Positions 4,778 through 19,576 of a DNA stretch of 19,577 nt are shown one piece after another. How positions within the stretch are numbered: the first letter of the stretch is position 1; every line of letters starts with the position of its first letter. The stretch is from Candidatus Aenigmatarchaeota archaeon. GTDB taxonomy: Archaea; Aenigmatarchaeota; Aenigmatarchaeia; QMZP01; QMZT01. The position numbers and the translations under genes were made by a program. The stretch covers positions 1 to 19,577 of the forward strand of contig JBGPQP010000016.1 of NCBI GenBank assembly GCA_041489155.1, written 5' to 3'. The notes under the pieces are model-generated. The model was given only the letters and a program-made list of their open reading frames with translations. It did not search any database and was not told where the DNA came from.

Positions 4778-7700
4778 ATGAGCAAAAAAGCTTTGATGGC
4801 AATTGTGCTGATTCCGCTATTTTTATTTTTATTTTCTGCTAGCTATGCCGGTGCGGTCGAGATATGCGAGTCCTGCGATGATGTCGAGGACGTGTTCAAC
4901 TCTTATTCTATCTCATGGCTGGGCAATGTCAGACTCGGCGCTACCAACACCATCACTTTGAGCGGCCACCAGAGCCATGGCATAAAGTCCTTGTTAGTCT
5001 CATGCGAGATGCCGTGCGGCAAGCTGGGCGAAAAATGCTGCTATGACGGAGTGGTTAGCGCATTCGTCTGCGATTACAACTACCTCAAATGCACTGCGCA
5101 GGACGAAAGCGGCATATGCGCTTACACCTGCAACCCCGGAGAAACGACGCAGTGCTTCACCTACAGAAACGGCGAAACCATATACGGCGAAGACGCGGTA
5201 ACAACAGGAGCCTGCGCCCCGGGCACTGCGGCCTGCGTTGACCATCTGTGGGGGCCCTGCGAAAACCAGGTAGGGCCTTTCCAGGAGATATGCAACGGCA
5301 TCGATGACGACTGCGACGGCAAGATAGACAACCAGTGGACAGACGACTCTTATCCCATATACACCTATTGCTGCGAAGACGGATACGAATGCGGGGAATG
5401 CGGCATGGGCATGAAATACTGCTTTAACGGCAACTGGCAGGATGACAGCCAGTGCACGAGCATGGCATACGCTTCGCCGGAGCTTTGCAATGGCCTTGAC
5501 GACGACTGCGACGGGGTGATAGATGACGTGGGCAATGGCGCTTCTGTGGAAGAAACGAAATGTGCCTGCTATAACGGAAACGCAAATAAAATAGAGACAT
5601 GCAACGGCCTTGACGACGACTGCAACGAGGTGATAGATGATGTTTATGACGTCTCTACGTGCGCCTGCTACAACGGCGCACACACACCCGGCGAGCTGAC
5701 GGAAAGCTGCAACTCCAAAGACGACGACTGCAACGGGGTGATAGACGACCAGTGGATTGGAACATTGGGCTGGGATTGGCCTTACTATGTCGAATACTGC
5801 GGCATGGGTACGCCGTGCGAGGGAGGTTATTGGAAATGCAATGCGGCCAAAAACGGCGTCGTCTGCTCAACCATAGGCGGCAGCAACAATCTTGCCCAGA
5901 ACGAGACATGCGACAACATAGACAATGACTGCGATAACAGCGTTGATGAGGGCTGCGCCTGCGCACCAGGCAACTGGACCTACTGCGGCTTGAATGTTGG
6001 CGAATGCGTACAGGGGCTGCAGGAGTGCGTTTCTGGTGCATGGAGCACCCAATGCATAAATTACAAAGGCCCGGAAAACGAAATATGCGACGGCAGTGAC
6101 AACGACTGCGACAACATAACAGACAACGTGAACGGCGGCAACTCGACCATTTCTACCAAATGCAGATGCTACAACAAGGGCACACCATCGGCAGAGACCT
6201 GCAACGGCATAGACGACGACTGTAACGGCAGGGTTGACGACGTTGGCAGCGGGACTTCAGTGGATTCCTCGCATTGCAGATGCTATGGAGGCATAGTTAA
6301 ACCAGGAGAAAAAAGCGAGACATGCAATAATATAGACGACGACTGCGACGGCAAGATAGACGAAGAATGGGCCAATCTGGGCAAAGACTGCGGTACCGGC
6401 ATATGCTCTGGAGGGAAGTTTGTTTGCTCCATCAGCGGCAATTACACCGTCTGCTCCACCATGAGCAGCTACGGCATGATGAATGCGACGGACAAGACAA
6501 AGCTCGAGGTCTGCAACGGCATAGACGACGACTGCAACGGCATCGTGGATGACATAGGTGGCATGCAGTCGGTGGAAGACACGAAATGCGGCTGCTACGG
6601 AGGGAAAGCCAAGGCCAGTGAGGCCTGCAACAAGATAGACGACGACTGCGATGAAGGAATAGACGAGGAGTTATTATGCCTGTGTTTTGACGGCCAGAAG
6701 AAGGCCTGCGGCTCGCCCATAGGCGAGTGCGAATTAGGCGAGGCAGAATGCACCGGCGGCGTGTGGGGCAGATGCACCGGAGGCAAAGGCCCTGCCGAAG
6801 AAACGTGCAACATGAAGGACGATGACTGTGACGGAGCGATGGACAATGTTGAAAACGGTTATTCCATAGAAGAAACCCGCTGCGGCTGTTACAACAATGG
6901 CAGGCCTTCCATCGAGAAATGCGACGGCATTGACAACGACTGCAACCAGGTTATAGACGACGACATAGACTGCAGGTGCAGTGAAGGCGAGGAGATGCAG
7001 TGCGGCTCCAACGTCGGAGAATGCACCCCTGGCATGAAGCAATGCATAGGAGGTGCCTGGGGAGCGTGCGCAGGAGGCGTGCTGCCGAAACCTGAAGAAT
7101 GCAACGGCAAGGACGACGACTGCAACGGCGTCGTTGACGACGTCGATGGTGGGAATTCCATAGGTTCTTCCAGATGTGCATGTTACAACAGATTTGCTAT
7201 GCCGTCATCCCAGGACGAGATATTCAACGGCATAGATGACGACTGCGACGGGAAAGTTGATGAGGGCTTCGGGAACGTAGAAGAGCCTTCTCACTGTCAT
7301 GACAACGTCAGGAACGGCGACGAGACTGGCGTCGATTGCGGAGGTTCGTGCAAGAAGGCCTGCCCGGTGATGCCTGCCGTTAACGTATGGATTATCATAT
7401 TCGCGGCGCTTGTGGCGGTCATAGCGATATTCGGTTTGTTCTTCAGCTCCTTCTGGAAGAAGGAGACAAAGTCGCTGTTCGAGAGGGGAAGGGGGAAACG
7501 CAAAATAATTTCCATAGTTTTGGTGGCGCTTTTGGTTGCAGTTTTGTTCGCTGAATATAACGTTAACAGATATTCAGGCTATGCTACTGTGAAGTTCGCT
7601 GGTTCTGAAGAAATGCCGAAAATAAACCAGCAATGGACGTGCGGCAACGGCTTTCAGGGCTGCACTGCGGTAAGCACGCAGGATATCTGCACCCCGGACC

Positions 7701-8539
7701 CCTACCTGCCCATGAACTACAACACCTACAACATCAACCTGCAGGCTCCCGCAGAGGGAAACTACAGCTGCGAGATACGCGTCGTTTCAAATCATTTCGA
7801 CTACAGCGGCACGCAGGAAAACGATGAAAGGACTGACGTTTACCTGAACGGCAAGCTCGTCGGCACGACGAGCGACCTGCGCTGCCCGCCCGGCGGGCGT
7901 AATATAGACGTAGACGTATGTGCTGTGGAGCCAGACTGTGTGTGTTCTGTTTTGCTGGATATCAGCATGTGCGAAAGCAAACATAGCGTAGAGACCTGTA
8001 ACGTCGAACCAAACTGCTGCTGGATGTATACTGACCAGGGAGAGAACGCGGATCGCGGCTGCGGCGGAGTTGGCTGCTGTGCAGGAAAAGGTGGCGTTGG
8101 ATCGCCTGATGAGTACATGGCTTCCGTGCGCCTTTGCTACTGGGACGGAAGCAAATCATGGTGTTTGAAAAAGGCATGCTCAAACGCTGACTGGCAGACA
8201 TACAAATGCGAGAATTACAATAACCAGAACGATTGCAACGATTACACCAAGCACGCCGGCCTTGTCTGCTGCTGGTACGGCGGCAAATGCCAGACCGATG
8301 TCTGCCCGAACTGGTACAGCTCAAGAGTTGACGGGAGATTTGCTTACGCCAAAGGACAGTGCGAGGGCACAGGATCAGACCCTTATGTGCTGCTTCCTGC
8401 CGGGGCATGCACATGGGACAGCGCCAATCCAGGAAGCGTATTCCCGTGCAGATGCGCTTCTGGCTTCAGCTCATACACAAATCCTGACACGTACGTCAAT
8501 GACAGAGGAAGCGAATGCGTTGTGACTGTGCTTAAATGA
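4778..8539 (+). CDS. large secreted/membrane-anchored Cys-rich protein with 14 ExCNGxDDDCDGxxD repeats (putative metal-binding, MopE-like motif)
   Basis: N-terminal signal peptide, 14 counted E-x-C-[ND]-x-x-D-[DN]-D-C-[DN]-x-x-x-D units, a DETGVDCGGSC motif, two internal TM helices and a second Cys-rich C-terminal module. GGTG SD-like sequence upstream. The true 3' end may be 8608 (see findings). Confidence 0.85.
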   Translation: MSKKALMAIVLIPLFLFLFSASYAGAVEICESCDDVEDVFNSYSISWLGNVRLGATNTITLSGHQSHGIKSLLVSCEMPCGKLGEKCCYDGVVSAFVCDYNYLKCTAQDESGICAYTCNPGETTQCFTYRNGETIYGEDAVTTGACAPGTAACVDHLWGPCENQVGPFQEICNGIDDDCDGKIDNQWTDDSYPIYTYCCEDGYECGECGMGMKYCFNGNWQDDSQCTSMAYASPELCNGLDDDCDGVIDDVGNGASVEETKCACYNGNANKIETCNGLDDDCNEVIDDVYDVSTCACYNGAHTPGELTESCNSKDDDCNGVIDDQWIGTLGWDWPYYVEYCGMGTPCEGGYWKCNAAKNGVVCSTIGGSNNLAQNETCDNIDNDCDNSVDEGCACAPGNWTYCGLNVGECVQGLQECVSGAWSTQCINYKGPENEICDGSDNDCDNITDNVNGGNSTISTKCRCYNKGTPSAETCNGIDDDCNGRVDDVGSGTSVDSSHCRCYGGIVKPGEKSETCNNIDDDCDGKIDEEWANLGKDCGTGICSGGKFVCSISGNYTVCSTMSSYGMMNATDKTKLEVCNGIDDDCNGIVDDIGGMQSVEDTKCGCYGGKAKASEACNKIDDDCDEGIDEELLCLCFDGQKKACGSPIGECELGEAECTGGVWGRCTGGKGPAEETCNMKDDDCDGAMDNVENGYSIEETRCGCYNNGRPSIEKCDGIDNDCNQVIDDDIDCRCSEGEEMQCGSNVGECTPGMKQCIGGAWGACAGGVLPKPEECNGKDDDCNGVVDDVDGGNSIGSSRCACYNRFAMPSSQDEIFNGIDDDCDGKVDEGFGNVEEPSHCHDNVRNGDETGVDCGGSCKKACPVMPAVNVWIIIFAALVAVIAIFGLFFSSFWKKETKSLFERGRGKRKIISIVLVALLVAVLFAEYNVNRYSGYATVKFAGSEEMPKINQQWTCGNGFQGCTAVSTQDICTPDPYLPMNYNTYNINLQAPAEGNYSCEIRVVSNHFDYSGTQENDERTDVYLNGKLVGTTSDLRCPPGGRNIDVDVCAVEPDCVCSVLLDISMCESKHSVETCNVEPNCCWMYTDQGENADRGCGGVGCCAGKGGVGSPDEYMASVRLCYWDGSKSWCLKKACSNADWQTYKCENYNNQNDCNDYTKHAGLVCCWYGGKCQTDVCPNWYSSRVDGRFAYAKGQCEGTGSDPYVLLPAGACTWDSANPGSVFPCRCASGFSSYTNPDTYVNDRGSECVVTVLK
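5285..7268 (+). repeat. intragenic coding repeats (TGCAACGGCATAGACGACGACTGC-like), 14 copies
   Basis: The GACGACGACTGC core recurs in frame. GACGACTGCGACGGCAAGATAGAC is identical near 5306 and 6338. Confidence 0.85.
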
Positions 8540-16052: not shown

Positions 16053-18953
16053 CTATAACAATTCTATTCCCGGCTTCCCCGGCATCGCCTTTGCCGCCTT
16101 GTCGCTTGCTGACGCCTCAGCGCGGGAGATTTCGACATTCAGGTTGAATTCATGCTTGAGGAATTTCGCTGCCTCCAGCAAAGCGCCAAACTCCTCGTCC
16201 TGGCCGAGGATTTGGGACGGCAGCTTTGACGGGTCCTTGACGACGGACGGGACGAACCTGGAGATTTCCTGGCCGTGCTCCTTGTCCACCACCGCCTTCA
16301 TTATCTTGCCTATGTCCCTGGTTTTCTCCATTTCGTCCTTCAGCTTCTGGAAGAAGGCGTATTTCCACTTGGGTGAAACGAAAAGCCTGATCTTCTTCGG
16401 CTCGATTTTCACGAGCCTGAGCACGCTCCTGATATCTTCTGTGACGCAGTCCACCAGCTCGTCGGAAGCGACGAATTTCTCGTTTATCATCTTCTTATCG
16501 CTTTCAGGCCAGCCCCGGAGCGAGGAGAAGCCTTTGCCGCCAGACTTTTCCCACAACTCCTCGCTGATGTGCGGCACAACAGGATTGAGCATGCGTATGT
16601 ATTTGTCCACGAAAAGCCCGTAAACTGCATGCAATTCATTCGCGTCCGAGCGGCGCTTCAGCTTCTTCAGCCATGAGGGGATCGAATAAAGCACTATGCT
16701 GCCGTAATCCCTGAGGCGCATTTCGGACAAAGCTTTGTCCGCTTCGGCGACAGCGGCCTCGAATCTGGCCATGAAAGCCCTGCCGAGAGAACCCAGCTCT
16801 TCGTGTCCGCGCTTTTTATGCTCATGGTTTCGCCTGCGGATTGCTTCTGCGACCATTTCGTATATTCCAGAAAGCGTTTTCTGGATGTTCTCGGCTTCGT
16901 TCGTCTTCCAGTCGAACGTGCCTTCAAGATTCGTCGCCGTAGAGATGTACGCGCGGAACGTGTCCGCCCCATACGTATTCTTGACGTCCAGCAGCGTGAT
17001 GACATTGCCCTTCGACTTCGACATCTTCATGCCACCGCTCTGAACAAACCCATGGAAGGAAATCTTCTTCGGCCAGTATTTCTCCGGGAAAATGCCCGCG
17101 TGGGCGAAGATGAAGAATGAAAGATGGTTGGAAAGATGGGCGACGTACGTATGGCGGTGGTCGTTCGGGTACCAGTAGTCGAACTGCGAGCGCATCTCTT
17201 TCAGGTTTTCTGCAGGGATATGAGTAAGCTTGCTCACGTGCATCGCATCGCCTTCGCCAAGATAAACGTAATCGAAAAATGCCGTTTCTAGCTGCTCAGG
17301 CTTTATCCTGTACTTGTTTATCAGGTTCTTGATGATGTAGAAGCTCATGTAAATCGTCGAGTCGGACAGCGATTCTATTATCCAGTCACGGTTGAAAGGC
17401 AGCGGCGTCCCCAGGCCCCTCCTCCTCGCTGCCGGCCTCTTGTCAAGCCATTCGAACGTATCTTCAAAGAGTTTTCTCATCGTGCCAGGCAGCAGCTCCA
17501 TTTCCCTGAGGCATCTGGAAGCGAGCGGTTTCCAGCCTTTGGCGTTGAAGTCGAGGAACCACTGGTCTTCCAGGACGGAGACCACGACTCTGGTTCCGTC
17601 CCTGCAGAAAGCGGCTCTGGACGTTTCATAAATAACATCCGCCTCGCCGCTTTCGATGAGCTCCTTTTTCACCGCATCCTTCGCATCGATGACTTTCATG
17701 CCTGCATATTTGCCGCAGTTCTCGTTCATCACGCCAGTGTGGAAGCCTTCCTTGTAAATCGTCTGCGTCGCCCCCTCCAGGCGAGGATCATGCTGGTTAG
17801 CCAGCGAAAGCTGCTCCGATATCCGCAGAGCGGCAAGGTCGCCCCAGCCCGGAATTTTTATGATTGGTATCGGCTTTATTTTCCTGACCTCCTCGGTGTC
17901 CAGGCCGTATTTCTTGCAGGTTTCCCTGTCGTTCTGCAGGTCCTTCAGCGCCATCCAGTCGTACGGCGCGTCAGAAGGTACGCTGGTAACGATGCCGCTC
18001 CCGACATTCGCTTCAACGAACGTGGAAGGGAGAATAATGACTTTCTTGCCGATGCCCGGTGCTCTTGCGTATTGGCCTATAAGGTCCGCTCCTTTTACGT
18101 AGCCTGCCGCCTTCAGGCCTTTCTTCTGGAAATTTAGTTTTTCGTAGCCTTCCCTGCTCATGACCCAGGTCTCTTCACCAGCTGCGATTTTCATGTATTC
18201 GGTTTCCGGGTTCACCCAGAGATTCGTTTGTCCGAATACGGTCTCGGGCCTCAGCGTCGCGGCAACCAGAATCAGGCCGTCGTCCATCCTGAATTTAAGG
18301 AGCGTGAATTCGAGTTTCGAGACGGGATTGGTGTCCGCGTCCTGTATGTCGTCCTCGCCGACGGCGTTCTCGCATTTGGGGCAGTAAAGCACGGGATAGC
18401 TGCCTTTTATCAGGTAATTCTTGTCCCGGTATTTCATGAACTGCCAGGTTATGAACTTCTGGTAGTCGGGGTCGCCAGTCGTGAAGCGCCTCGTCCAGTC
18501 GATGCTCAGGCCGAGAGAGGCATATTCATCCATCATTTTGGGGATAAAGAAGTTGACAATGTTCCACGGCTCGCTGAAGGAGCGCACGATTTTGGCAGCT
18601 TCCTTTTCATTCTTCACGTAATTGCGGACATAGCTCTTATACAGATCGATTTTTGCCTGGTCGCATGCTTCGATTGCGGCGGATATGCCAAGCACCGGCG
18701 TTCCGGTTATGTGGAACGCCAGCGGGTAGAGAACGTTGAAGCCCTTCATGCGCATGTAGCGCACGTAGATGTCGCTTTCAGCCACTGCTCGCCCGTGGCC
18801 GATGTGGAGGCTGCCTGAGATGTACGGATAAGGCGTGGTGAAGAAGAACTTCTTCTTCCCGCGGTCGATTTTGGGCTCGAATATTCTGCCCTCCCTCCAC
18901 CGCTTCTGCCATTTTTCCTCGGTCTTCCTGAAGTCGTGCGCGCTCTCTGCCAT
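16053..18953 (-). CDS. leuS: leucyl-tRNA synthetase, archaeal/eukaryotic type
   Basis: PYPYISGSLHIGH, KMSKSKGN, CP1 editing motifs ATLRPET and GSGIVTSVPSDAPYD, WIIESLSDSTIY, and C-terminal AMPGKPGI. Confidence 0.97.
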   Translation of the reverse strand: MAESAHDFRKTEEKWQKRWREGRIFEPKIDRGKKKFFFTTPYPYISGSLHIGHGRAVAESDIYVRYMRMKGFNVLYPLAFHITGTPVLGISAAIEACDQAKIDLYKSYVRNYVKNEKEAAKIVRSFSEPWNIVNFFIPKMMDEYASLGLSIDWTRRFTTGDPDYQKFITWQFMKYRDKNYLIKGSYPVLYCPKCENAVGEDDIQDADTNPVSKLEFTLLKFRMDDGLILVAATLRPETVFGQTNLWVNPETEYMKIAAGEETWVMSREGYEKLNFQKKGLKAAGYVKGADLIGQYARAPGIGKKVIILPSTFVEANVGSGIVTSVPSDAPYDWMALKDLQNDRETCKKYGLDTEEVRKIKPIPIIKIPGWGDLAALRISEQLSLANQHDPRLEGATQTIYKEGFHTGVMNENCGKYAGMKVIDAKDAVKKELIESGEADVIYETSRAAFCRDGTRVVVSVLEDQWFLDFNAKGWKPLASRCLREMELLPGTMRKLFEDTFEWLDKRPAARRRGLGTPLPFNRDWIIESLSDSTIYMSFYIIKNLINKYRIKPEQLETAFFDYVYLGEGDAMHVSKLTHIPAENLKEMRSQFDYWYPNDHRHTYVAHLSNHLSFFIFAHAGIFPEKYWPKKISFHGFVQSGGMKMSKSKGNVITLLDVKNTYGADTFRAYISTATNLEGTFDWKTNEAENIQKTLSGIYEMVAEAIRRRNHEHKKRGHEELGSLGRAFMARFEAAVAEADKALSEMRLRDYGSIVLYSIPSWLKKLKRRSDANELHAVYGLFVDKYIRMLNPVVPHISEELWEKSGGKGFSSLRGWPESDKKMINEKFVASDELVDCVTEDIRSVLRLVKIEPKKIRLFVSPKWKYAFFQKLKDEMEKTRDIGKIMKAVVDKEHGQEISRFVPSVVKDPSKLPSQILGQDEEFGALLEAAKFLKHEFNLNVEISRAEASASDKAAKAMPGKPGIELL

Positions 18954-19004: not shown

Positions 19005-19031
19005 TAATCAAGGGCGTGTAGCTCAGCTGGA

Positions 19032-19071
19032 AACAAGGGAAGAAACAGACCTGGTCTGTTTCGGTCTGCAG
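19032..19071 (+). other. tRNA intron 1 (40 nt, D-loop, after position 20)
   Basis: Relaxed BHB: GCTG (19026-29) / CTGC (19066-69) with one U.U mismatch, bulges GA|A and AG|T, inner AC/GT pairs. Internal hairpin GAAACAGACC-T-GGTCTGTTTC. Removal restores the typical Arg GGATAGAGC. Boundary could be off by 1 nt. Confidence 0.75.
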
Positions 19072-19089
19072 TAGAGCGCTGGCCTTCTA

Positions 19090-19176
19090 TGCAGTTCTGC
19101 GCCATTGGGTGCGGGGCAAAGCTTGGAAGATTTGAAACGAAGGGGTTTCTGCTTCTTCGTTGATGATAAAGAAGAA
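19090..19176 (+). other. tRNA intron 2 (87 nt, canonical 37/38 position)
   Basis: Central 4-bp helix CTTC (19084-87) / GAAG (19171-74), bulges TA|T and AA|A, closed by the anticodon stem. Confidence 0.88.
19118..19170 (+). ncRNA. putative intron-encoded box C/D guide RNA (target U34)
   Basis: Guide GCTTGGAAG at 19121-29, D-like TTGA at 19132-35, 10-bp hairpin 19136-19161, C-like TGATGA at 19161-66. The D+5 nucleotide A19127 pairs with U34. Confidence 0.6.
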
Positions 19177-19218
19177 AGCCTGAGGTCGGGGGTCCGAATC
19201 CCCCCACGCCCGTCTGTC

Positions 19219-19255: not shown

Positions 19256-19576
19256 TCACTCCGCCATCGGCTTTACCTTAACGCCGATTTCCTCGAGCTT
19301 GATTTTGAACTTGTCCAGCGCGCGGTAGATGTCGTCCACGCTTTGCGCGCCCGTGCAGATTATCTTGCCCGAGCTGAACAGCAGGAATGCAACGCGCGGC
19401 TCGCTTATCCTGTAGACGAGACCCGGGAACTGCTCCGGCTCATACTCGGCATTTTCAAGGGAGAAGGCGATGTCTTCGAGATTCAGGTCAGCCTTTATCC
19501 TCGCTGATGCTACTATGTTCTCCACCTGTATCGGATATTTGTCAGGGACTTTAATGCCGGTTTCCTTTATCTTCGC
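19256..19576 (-). CDS. tbp: TATA-binding protein, C-terminal repeat (5' part outside window)
   Basis: The frame is open to the window edge: ...AKIKETGIKVPDKYPIQVENIVAS...AEYEPEQFPGLVYRISEPRVAFLLFSSGKIICTGA. The 89-aa ORF-track start is internal. Confidence 0.97.
   Translation of the reverse strand, partial: AKIKETGIKVPDKYPIQVENIVASARIKADLNLEDIAFSLENAEYEPEQFPGLVYRISEPRVAFLLFSSGKIICTGAQSVDDIYRALDKFKIKLEEIGVKVKPMAE

Follow-up and report, generated by a model that had tools for sequence, protein, structure and literature searches.

A candidate one-K-turn methylation guide in an archaeal tRNA-Arg(UCU) intron and its complementarity to tRNA-Gly(UCC)

The tRNA-Arg(UCU) gene and its anticodon-loop intron

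The window, by which we mean the whole stretch of 19,577 nt that was analysed, is contig C16 of a genome (G000) assembled in 39 contigs, amounting to 1.13 Mb and estimated to be 89.65% complete. Among named sequences, those closest to the leucyl-tRNA synthetase that it encodes come from Candidatus Aenigmatarchaeota MAGs. It contains a gene for tRNA-Arg(UCU) with two introns (Table 1), whose acceptor stem is GGGCGTG/CACGCCC and whose discriminator base is G19212. The exon frame and the intron boundaries were set by comparison with orthologues lacking the D-loop intron, using that from G002 as the exon reference. ARAGORN did not detect this gene in the window and Rfam, at gathering score, gave no matches in it, in both cases because the gene is interrupted by two introns; a permissive Rfam scan produced chance-level matches only, the best of them, to a Dictyostelium snoRNA, scoring 17.5 bits where the cut-off is 70. 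The tRNA gene is flanked by genes for leucyl-tRNA synthetase (LeuRS; 16053-18953, reverse strand) and TATA-binding protein (19256-19576, reverse strand), and the proximity of the synthetase and the tRNA is conserved in several relatives; the LeuRS from G004 matches as two overlapping pieces, suggesting a frameshift or an assembly error. Elsewhere in the window, positions 4778-8539 of the forward strand encode a protein of 1253 aa in which putative metal-binding motifs of the MopE type are repeated (PF11617, E = 1.7e-41).

Table 1. Features of the tRNA-Arg(UCU) gene and its introns, in positions of the window
Feature	Position	Strand	Basis
Host tRNA-Arg(UCU) gene, with two introns	19012..19212	+	Read from the sequence, orthologues aligned by eye
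D-loop intron, 40 nt, holding a hairpin	19032..19071 (boundary +/-1)	+	Orthologues from G002-G005 lack the intron
Host nt 32-37, CTTCTA (U34 = 19086, U36 = 19088), 5' part of the putative target	19084..19089	+	
Anticodon-loop (37/38) intron, 87 nt, putative relaxed bulge-helix-bulge type	19090..19176	+	Read from the sequence
Intron hairpin 1, with a 10-bp stem	19094..19117	+	Predicted fold and comparison with relatives
Putative guide AAAGCTTGGAAGAT, 14 nt; core 19121-19129, GCTTGGAAG	19118..19131	+	
D'-like box UUGA, one strand of the K-turn	19132..19135	+	
Closed hairpin, canonical stem of the K-turn (AACGAAG.../...CTTCGTT)	19136..19161	+	
C'-like box: 3-nt bulge GAU, then GAUA	19162..19168	+	
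GAAG, intron strand of the central helix of the splice motif, pairing with 5' exon nt 32-35	19171..19174	+	
Host nt 38-40, AGC, 3' part of the putative target	19177..19179	+	

The hairpin within the D-loop intron is formed by AAACAGACC...GGTCTGTTT. This intron is also present in G001, G012, G014, G017 and G021 and is absent from G002, G003, G004 and G005. A search for the locus among public sequencing runs listed no RNA run; DNA contigs from four sediment runs contained the same gene, together with one variant without the D-loop intron, a related gene on a contig from run X3 that skips positions 19031-19073.

The anticodon-loop intron comprises, in this order, hairpin 1, the putative guide, UUGA, the closed hairpin, GAU-GAUA, two bases and GAAG. 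Hairpin 1 varies among relatives and is missing in G017. Archaeal bulge-helix-bulge motifs consist of a 4-bp helix with a 3-nt bulge at either end and a further helix beyond each bulge. A splice motif can be drawn for this intron with a 4-bp central helix (19084-19087/19171-19174), two 3-nt bulges (UA|U and AA|A) and the helix of the anticodon stem, and the sequence GAAGA(A) at the intron strand of this motif is conserved among orthologues; the outer helix on the intron side is absent, and the minimum-energy fold favours pairing of the guide with the exon instead.

In box C/D RNAs, the K-turn is made by boxes C (RUGAUGA) and D (CUGA) and has sheared G.A pairs in tandem, and archaeal box C/D sRNAs combine the C/D and C'/D' motifs in a bipartite, symmetric RNA; the guide, of around 8-12 nt, is located immediately upstream of box D or D', and the target base is that opposite its fifth nucleotide. 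In the intron, a K-turn of the C'/D' kind, UUGA/(GAU)GAUA, is made up of UUGA and GAUA together with the closing stem and the 3-nt bulge; its boxes are degenerate with respect to this consensus. The sequence of positions 19118-19135, AAAGCTTGGAAGATTTGA, consists of the 14 nt of the guide followed by TTGA; in this register, nine pairs are formed with host nt 32-40, with G19125 opposite nt 36 and A19127, the fifth base from the box, opposite U34. A second K-turn was found neither in the Arg intron of G000 nor in its orthologues, and hairpin 1 has no G.A motif. We rejected as a possible box D the exon sequence CTGA (nt 41-44), located 11 nt past the C'-like box, which has no partner box C and is not conserved outside family f1. 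We read this segment as the guide, with its D'-like box, of a probable single-K-turn, "half-mer", box C/D-type 2'-O-methylation guide residing in a tRNA-Arg(UCU) intron.

The genome contains genes for the proteins of a box C/D RNP: L7Ae (PF01248, 92.8 bits, contig C10), Nop5 (PF01798, 211 bits, contig C11) and fibrillarin (PF01269, 178 + 52 bits), the latter being split over contig ends (start of C11 and start of C7). The same one-K-turn design is found in the introns of tRNA-Trp (C13:17026-17172), with the fifth base on C34, and of tRNA-Leu(UAA) (C3:95075-95214), with the fifth base on U34, in both cases as modules guide-UUGA/AUGA-hairpin-UGU-GA. With the Arg module, therefore, G000 would have at least three intron-borne wobble guides. 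A search of G000 for Elp3 (TIGR01211) gave nothing above cut-off (43.5 bits versus 350), which may make ribose methylation the principal modification of the wobble base. Separately, C4:39060-39272 holds an initiator-like tRNA (A1-U72 ends) that is broken by one or more large insertions, which include a K-turn-like module, GCTTCCAAAGCT-TTGA-stem-TGT-GAAA; ARAGORN miscalls this gene as Arg(tct).

Complementarity to the anticodon loops of tRNA-Arg(UCU) and tRNA-Gly(UCC)

Host nucleotides 32-37 and 38-40 are separated by the intron, and the target is thus contiguous only once spliced, when the anticodon loop reads CTTCTAAGC. The sequence-only reading of the window had proposed that the guide is also a perfect match to the anticodon loop of tRNA-Gly(UCC), whose gene would lie elsewhere. 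We found this gene as a single copy on the minus strand of contig C9 (C9:42931-43003); it has the best tRNA score in the genome (71.8 bits versus RF00005), it is called Gly tcc by ARAGORN, and its anticodon arm is CAGGC CTTCCAA GCCTG. Its nt 32-40 are exactly CTTCCAAGC, as had been predicted, and this sequence is the reverse complement of positions 19121-19129; the core of the guide can consequently pair with this tRNA at nine positions, all of them Watson-Crick, and with the spliced host at the same nine, G19125-U36 being the sole wobble. The description of CTTCCAAGC as the usual 32-40 sequence of tRNA-Gly(UCC) holds for this genome, its general validity having been checked within this order alone. 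The predicted duplex energy is -15.6 kcal/mol with the Gly arm versus -13.3 kcal/mol with the spliced Arg arm.

Counting both strands, the assembly of 1.13 Mb contains the core 9-mer 10 times, versus some 8.6 occurrences expected, and 28 sites in 2.27 million positions allow at least nine contiguous Watson-Crick pairs including the N+5 base, one match in each of these two counts being the strand antisense to the guide. Among the stable RNAs of the assembly, the guide matches tRNA-Gly(UCC) only; there were no matches in the 16S rRNA, and the 23S rRNA is not in the assembly, contig C5 ending just past the 16S. Since the guide has to fit its host, whose anticodon loop is distinguished from that of tRNA-Gly(UCC) by nt 36 alone, the match in a single genome comes down to the presence of G versus A at one position of the guide. 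Taken in one genome, then, the Gly match is roughly a coin toss, and it is comparison among genomes that gives it any weight.

A whole-genome scan of G000 did not reveal any other convincing guide for U34 of tRNA-Gly(UCC). Loose scans of the genome gave mostly noise, with 77 guide-plus-box matches and with 390 and 2991 matches from the K-turn detectors; 15 K-turn matches were left after filtering, among which the Arg intron alone was convincing. A separate pattern, in which box C precedes a guide and CTGA, gave one more match, ATGATGA-14 nt-CTGA at C21:3128-3152. Its 14-mer can pair over 8 nt with nt 30-37 of tRNA-Gly(UCC), which places the fifth base on U34; the sequence lies inside an open frame of 227 aa and has no proper second half, and it is probably a coding-sequence coincidence arising from Met-Met codons.

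The minimum-energy fold of the precursor has the guide paired in cis with nt 32-37, forming 6 bp, and the guide also pairs with nt 38-40, which in the precursor come after nt 37 and the 87 nt of the intron. Complementarity therefore crosses the splice junction, and the full 9-bp duplex would form only on a spliced or intron-less tRNA, i.e., in trans or on the product. A trans action on tRNA-Arg(UCU), if any, would leave no reason in terms of base pairing to spare tRNA-Gly(UCC). Judging from the predicted fold, a purely cis, host-only action of the guide is possible.

Probable intron guides in related genomes

Of the 45 genomes of the order in which the gene was read, 43 have the guide-box-hairpin-box design in their Arg(UCU) intron, the genes from G048 and G075 being intron-less. 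The fifth base faces U34 in the 43 guides, with an invariant distance from the box to U34, while the stems of the K-turn are built from unrelated sequences in relatives. The C'-like box has the consensus NNU-GA-N-A, and it co-varies with its D'-like partner in the 40 orthologues that were parsed (UUGA/GAUA, UCGA/GAGA and CUGA/GAAG). We consider it highly probable that the Arg-intron element is a position-34 guide for its host.

Members of genus g24 (G042, G046, G081 and G082; loci L316, L317, L319 and L320) have TCTA as D'-like box, instead of TCGA or TTGA. An A-U pair here replaces the sheared A.G pair, and the K-turn may have been lost while the guide stays.

The element could alternatively have a role other than methylation, with its K-turn binding L7Ae and the antisense stretch masking or positioning the anticodon loop for splicing, with no action of fibrillarin. 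Such a role would fit the end of the K-turn 2 nt ahead of the helix strand of the splice motif, the missing outer helix of this motif, the presence of a single K-turn, the pairing of the guide in cis in the minimum-energy fold and the g24 box UCUA, which has no G for the sheared G.A pair. Nevertheless, the box-to-U34 distance, with the fifth base facing the target, is invariant in the introns of Arg, Gly, Leu and Trp tRNAs in spite of their different insertion sites (37/38 and 29/30), and pairing across the junction would be useless for the folding of the precursor; additionally, the version in the tRNA-Trp intron corresponds to a methylation guide already known from reviews (PMC11408192, PMC7994747). 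On balance, we regard the role in splicing without methylation as improbable.

The Arg-intron guides were classified as A-type or G-type after their base opposite nt 36, the A-type fitting the host only. Outside family f1, 25 of 26 guides are A-type and one, from G042, is G-type; within this family, 15 of 17 are G-type, and those from G001 and G004 are A-type. An adjacent, unpaired guide base varies freely. A pattern scan of metagenomes retrieved three genuine Arg-intron guides among the 118 matches listed; all of them are G-type and resemble genomes already counted. The length of the pairing also differs: in the window's clade (genera g1, g2, g6, g9 and g10, whose LeuRS are at least 69% identical to that from the window), 11 of 13 Arg guides have GCTT or TCTT before GGAAG, which gives 8-9 pairs crossing the junction, the Arg guide of the clade being 8-10 bp long; the Arg guides from g3 and g7 have GATT, giving seven pairs; and pairing outside f1 mostly ends at nt 37-38. 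In a quick tree constructed with a single protein, LeuRS, which is unusable as a marker outside the window's clade (31-43% identity), G001 was sister to G000 (support 99) and G004 was sister to G002 plus G003 (support 92), from which we can infer that G changed to A twice independently within the genus of the window.

In at least 25 of the 91 genomes of the order, the gene for tRNA-Gly(UCC) contains an intron at position 29/30, inside the anticodon stem, with its own putative guide for U34; by family, 11 of these introns are from f6, seven from f5 and seven from f1. The guides are CTTGGAAG or CTTGGAAA, followed by two bases, ATGA or GTGA, a loop and GATGAT, with the fifth base opposite U34, and the motif ATGA...GATGAT is K-loop-like (loci L368-L393; for instance, L386 is G032:C4 and L391 is G015:C31). 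Given their presence in at least 25 of 91 genomes, U34 of tRNA-Gly(UCC) appears to be a regular target of such guides in this lineage. Both introns are found in G032, where the Arg intron contains ATAGAAGGT-TTGA, with A opposite U36, and the Gly intron contains GCTTGGAAGAA-ATGA, which is G-type; a 10-mer of the latter guide, GCTTGGAAGA, is identical in the Arg-intron guide of the window.

This identity could be taken to mean that tRNA-Gly(UCC) is the main target, a Gly-type guide now residing in the Arg intron and the host being methylated poorly or not at all. In tRNAs with an anticodon ending in U, A37 is normally converted into t6A, which is unable to pair. A modified A37 would weaken the duplex with the mature tRNA-Arg(UCU), adding to the nine Watson-Crick pairs with tRNA-Gly(UCC) and the better duplex energy. 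Against this, G.U pairs off the target base are normally tolerated, and the A-type G001 and G004 retain the element for the host alone; moreover, GATT, as in the Arg guides from g3 and g7, and GCTT differ by one base change, so a transfer of the Gly guide is not needed. A guide directed mainly to tRNA-Gly(UCC) is therefore very improbable.

None of the nine tRNA-Gly(UCC) genes read from the window's clade contains a guide intron. There is no intron at 29/30 in G000, G002, G004, G005, G014, G017 and G021; G018 has a 17-nt remnant with neither guide nor K-turn, and the gene from G001 has an unrelated intron at 37/38. We looked for the gene in G003, G009, G012 and G013 and did not find it; in G022, there is an intron at the guide site that is interrupted by the contig end. 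The dedicated Gly guide is kept in genera g3 and g7, where it coexists with a G-type Arg guide (G006, G010, G015 and G019), and the G-type Arg guide predates the loss of the Gly guide. The A-type Arg guides from G001 and G004 accompany a Gly gene without guide intron, as does that from G054, of family f5. Considering the 20 genomes in which both genes were read, there is no Gly guide in seven and there is one in four of those with a G-type Arg guide, the corresponding figures for the A-type being three and six; among these related, non-independent genomes, the association of the G-type with a missing Gly guide is weak. These observations might be reconciled with dual use through the codon boxes: glycine codons form a four-fold family box, whereas the Arg/Ser box is split. 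Restriction of the wobble would be dispensable in the former, so the Gly guide could be easily lost, and it would be needed in the latter.

Readings of the guide, related systems and significance

From the sequences, their conservation, the co-variation of the K-turn boxes and the gene content we infer a mechanism in which L7Ae would bind the K-turn formed by UUGA and GAU-GAUA, where Nop5 and fibrillarin would assemble; the guide would pair with nt 32-40 of the anticodon loop, and fibrillarin would methylate the ribose of U34, opposite the fifth nucleotide of the guide. This RNP, made with the excised intron or with another precursor molecule, would act in trans on the spliced tRNA-Arg(UCU). 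If recognition is by base pairing alone, the intron-less tRNA-Gly(UCC) would be bound at least as well and its U34 would also be methylated; the Arg-intron guide would then appear to replace, in the window's clade, the dedicated guide present in the tRNA-Gly(UCC) intron of relatives.

A guide base such as G19125 can pair with U36 or C36, making it possible for one guide to target two tRNA families. We counted in favour of dual targeting the Gly match together with the pairing to the spliced host, the loss of the dedicated Gly guide in the clade, and the presence there of a long, G-type Arg guide. We counted against it the older origin of the G-type, the two changes from G to A, the case of G054, the weak association, the single K-turn and the cis fold. 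The earlier proposal of methylation of U34 in two tRNA families is thus supported in part: its prerequisites are all present in the sequences and it is in agreement with the pattern of the clade, but the occurrence of G beside a Gly guide and its two reversions to A speak against selection for G. As we see it, comparison of the sequences leaves dual targeting of Arg(UCU) and Gly(UCC) by the Arg-intron guide evenly poised. The fuller proposal, that an RNP with a one-K-turn intron guide methylates the wobble U of both tRNAs and that this breadth let the clade drop the Gly guide intron, is put forward tentatively, its probability falling slightly short of even on these sequence comparisons.

The main alternative is a guide for U34 of tRNA-Arg(UCU) alone, acting in cis or on its own spliced product, with G opposite U36 as a wobble that is tolerated and the fit to tRNA-Gly(UCC) as a by-product of anticodon arms that are distinct at nt 36 alone. 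The guide sits in the Arg gene in 43 of 43 cases and, outside f1, nearly always (25/26) fits the host alone, with a pairing that mostly ends at nt 37-38, in line with an action in cis; U36 can pair with either base, G or A, and G was replaced by A twice within the window's genus; the G-type exists beside the Gly gene's own guide in g3 and g7; the minimum-energy fold shows the cis pairing; and, according to Lui et al. (2018; PMC6009581), the position-34 guides of Pyrobaculum have a single tRNA target each. However, the guides of the window's clade pair with nt 38-40, for which a spliced tRNA is needed, and nothing would then exclude the better-pairing tRNA-Gly(UCC). Likewise, the maintenance of A in 25 of 26 guides outside f1 and of G in 15 of 17 inside is unlike a free drift between G and A, and the dedicated Gly guide has been lost in the clade. 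On balance, we find an action restricted to the host doubtful.

To our knowledge, intron-borne methylation guides are textbook matter only for archaeal tRNA-Trp. In the searchable literature, which comprises few subscription journals, we found no description of such guides in introns of Arg or Gly tRNAs or in Aenigmatarchaeota. The intron of archaeal pre-tRNA-Trp (Haloferax volcanii, and Pyrococcus sR50) contains a C/D guide for which a trans action is described in reviews (Clouet-d'Orval 2001 and Singh 2004, via PMC11408192 and PMC7994747). As with the Arg guide, it resides in a protein-spliced 37/38 intron, is complementary to the anticodon loop of its host and is directed to position 34. 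The pre-tRNA-Trp type, however, has C/D and C'/D' motifs and two guides (for C34 and U39), whereas there is one K-turn and one guide in the tRNA-Arg(UCU) intron, where the canonical stem of the K-turn is a closed hairpin; also, a second, unrelated tRNA family, Gly(UCC), here fits the guide perfectly. We thus regard the Arg-intron element as related to the guide known from the tRNA-Trp intron, but with a single K-turn and a single guide.

Free-standing C/D guides exist in Pyrococcus for the wobble positions of tRNA-Leu(CAA), Leu(UAA), Met and Trp (PMC7994747), and sR26, sR27, sR45 and sR46 from Pyrobaculum are aimed at tRNA position 34 (Lui et al., 2018; PMC6009581). These sRNAs also act by base pairing on C34 or U34, with duplexes of at least 8 bp; they are independent genes with two box motifs, each with one reported tRNA target at position 34, whereas the Arg guide is an intronic half-mer that fits two families. 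A single guide can serve several tRNA substrates through a common sequence, as is the case of the D guide of Pae sR64, which matches 16 tRNA families at G51 (PMC6009581). Guides of this type use universally conserved arm sequences, in contrast to the Arg guide, for which the shared sequence includes the anticodon and the breadth would come from a G able to pair with U36 and C36. Single-site C/D RNPs were active but had lost site specificity, according to Hardin and Batey (2006; PMC1635284), which bears on the single K-turn of the Arg intron.

With respect to the host gene, it shares with the multi-intron tRNA genes of DPANN archaea and Thermoproteales the presence of two introns, a non-canonical site in the D-loop and a fast turnover of introns among relatives. 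The multi-intron genes from both groups have relaxed bulge-helix-bulge sites, which the splice motif as drawn here would resemble. Descriptions of those genes treat the introns as passengers, whereas the anticodon-loop intron analysed here would be a conserved functional module.

The one-K-turn form of the intron guide is found in tRNA-Arg(UCU), tRNA-Gly(UCC) and tRNA-Leu(UAA) across a DPANN order with genomes of around 1 Mb. If these guides work, they would provide a reason for reduced genomes to keep tRNA introns, and a half-mer C/D RNA would be specific in vivo, contrary to the in vitro work. They would also constitute a natural series (A-type, G-type, with and without a Gly guide) in which to follow the evolution of guide breadth, which bears as well on whether ribose methylation of the wobble base substitutes for a missing Elp3 pathway. 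Should the dual reading be true, the Arg intron would have been retained as the only source of a common modification guide, and this would be a natural case of guide take-over, with an intron kept for its trans function on the product of another gene.
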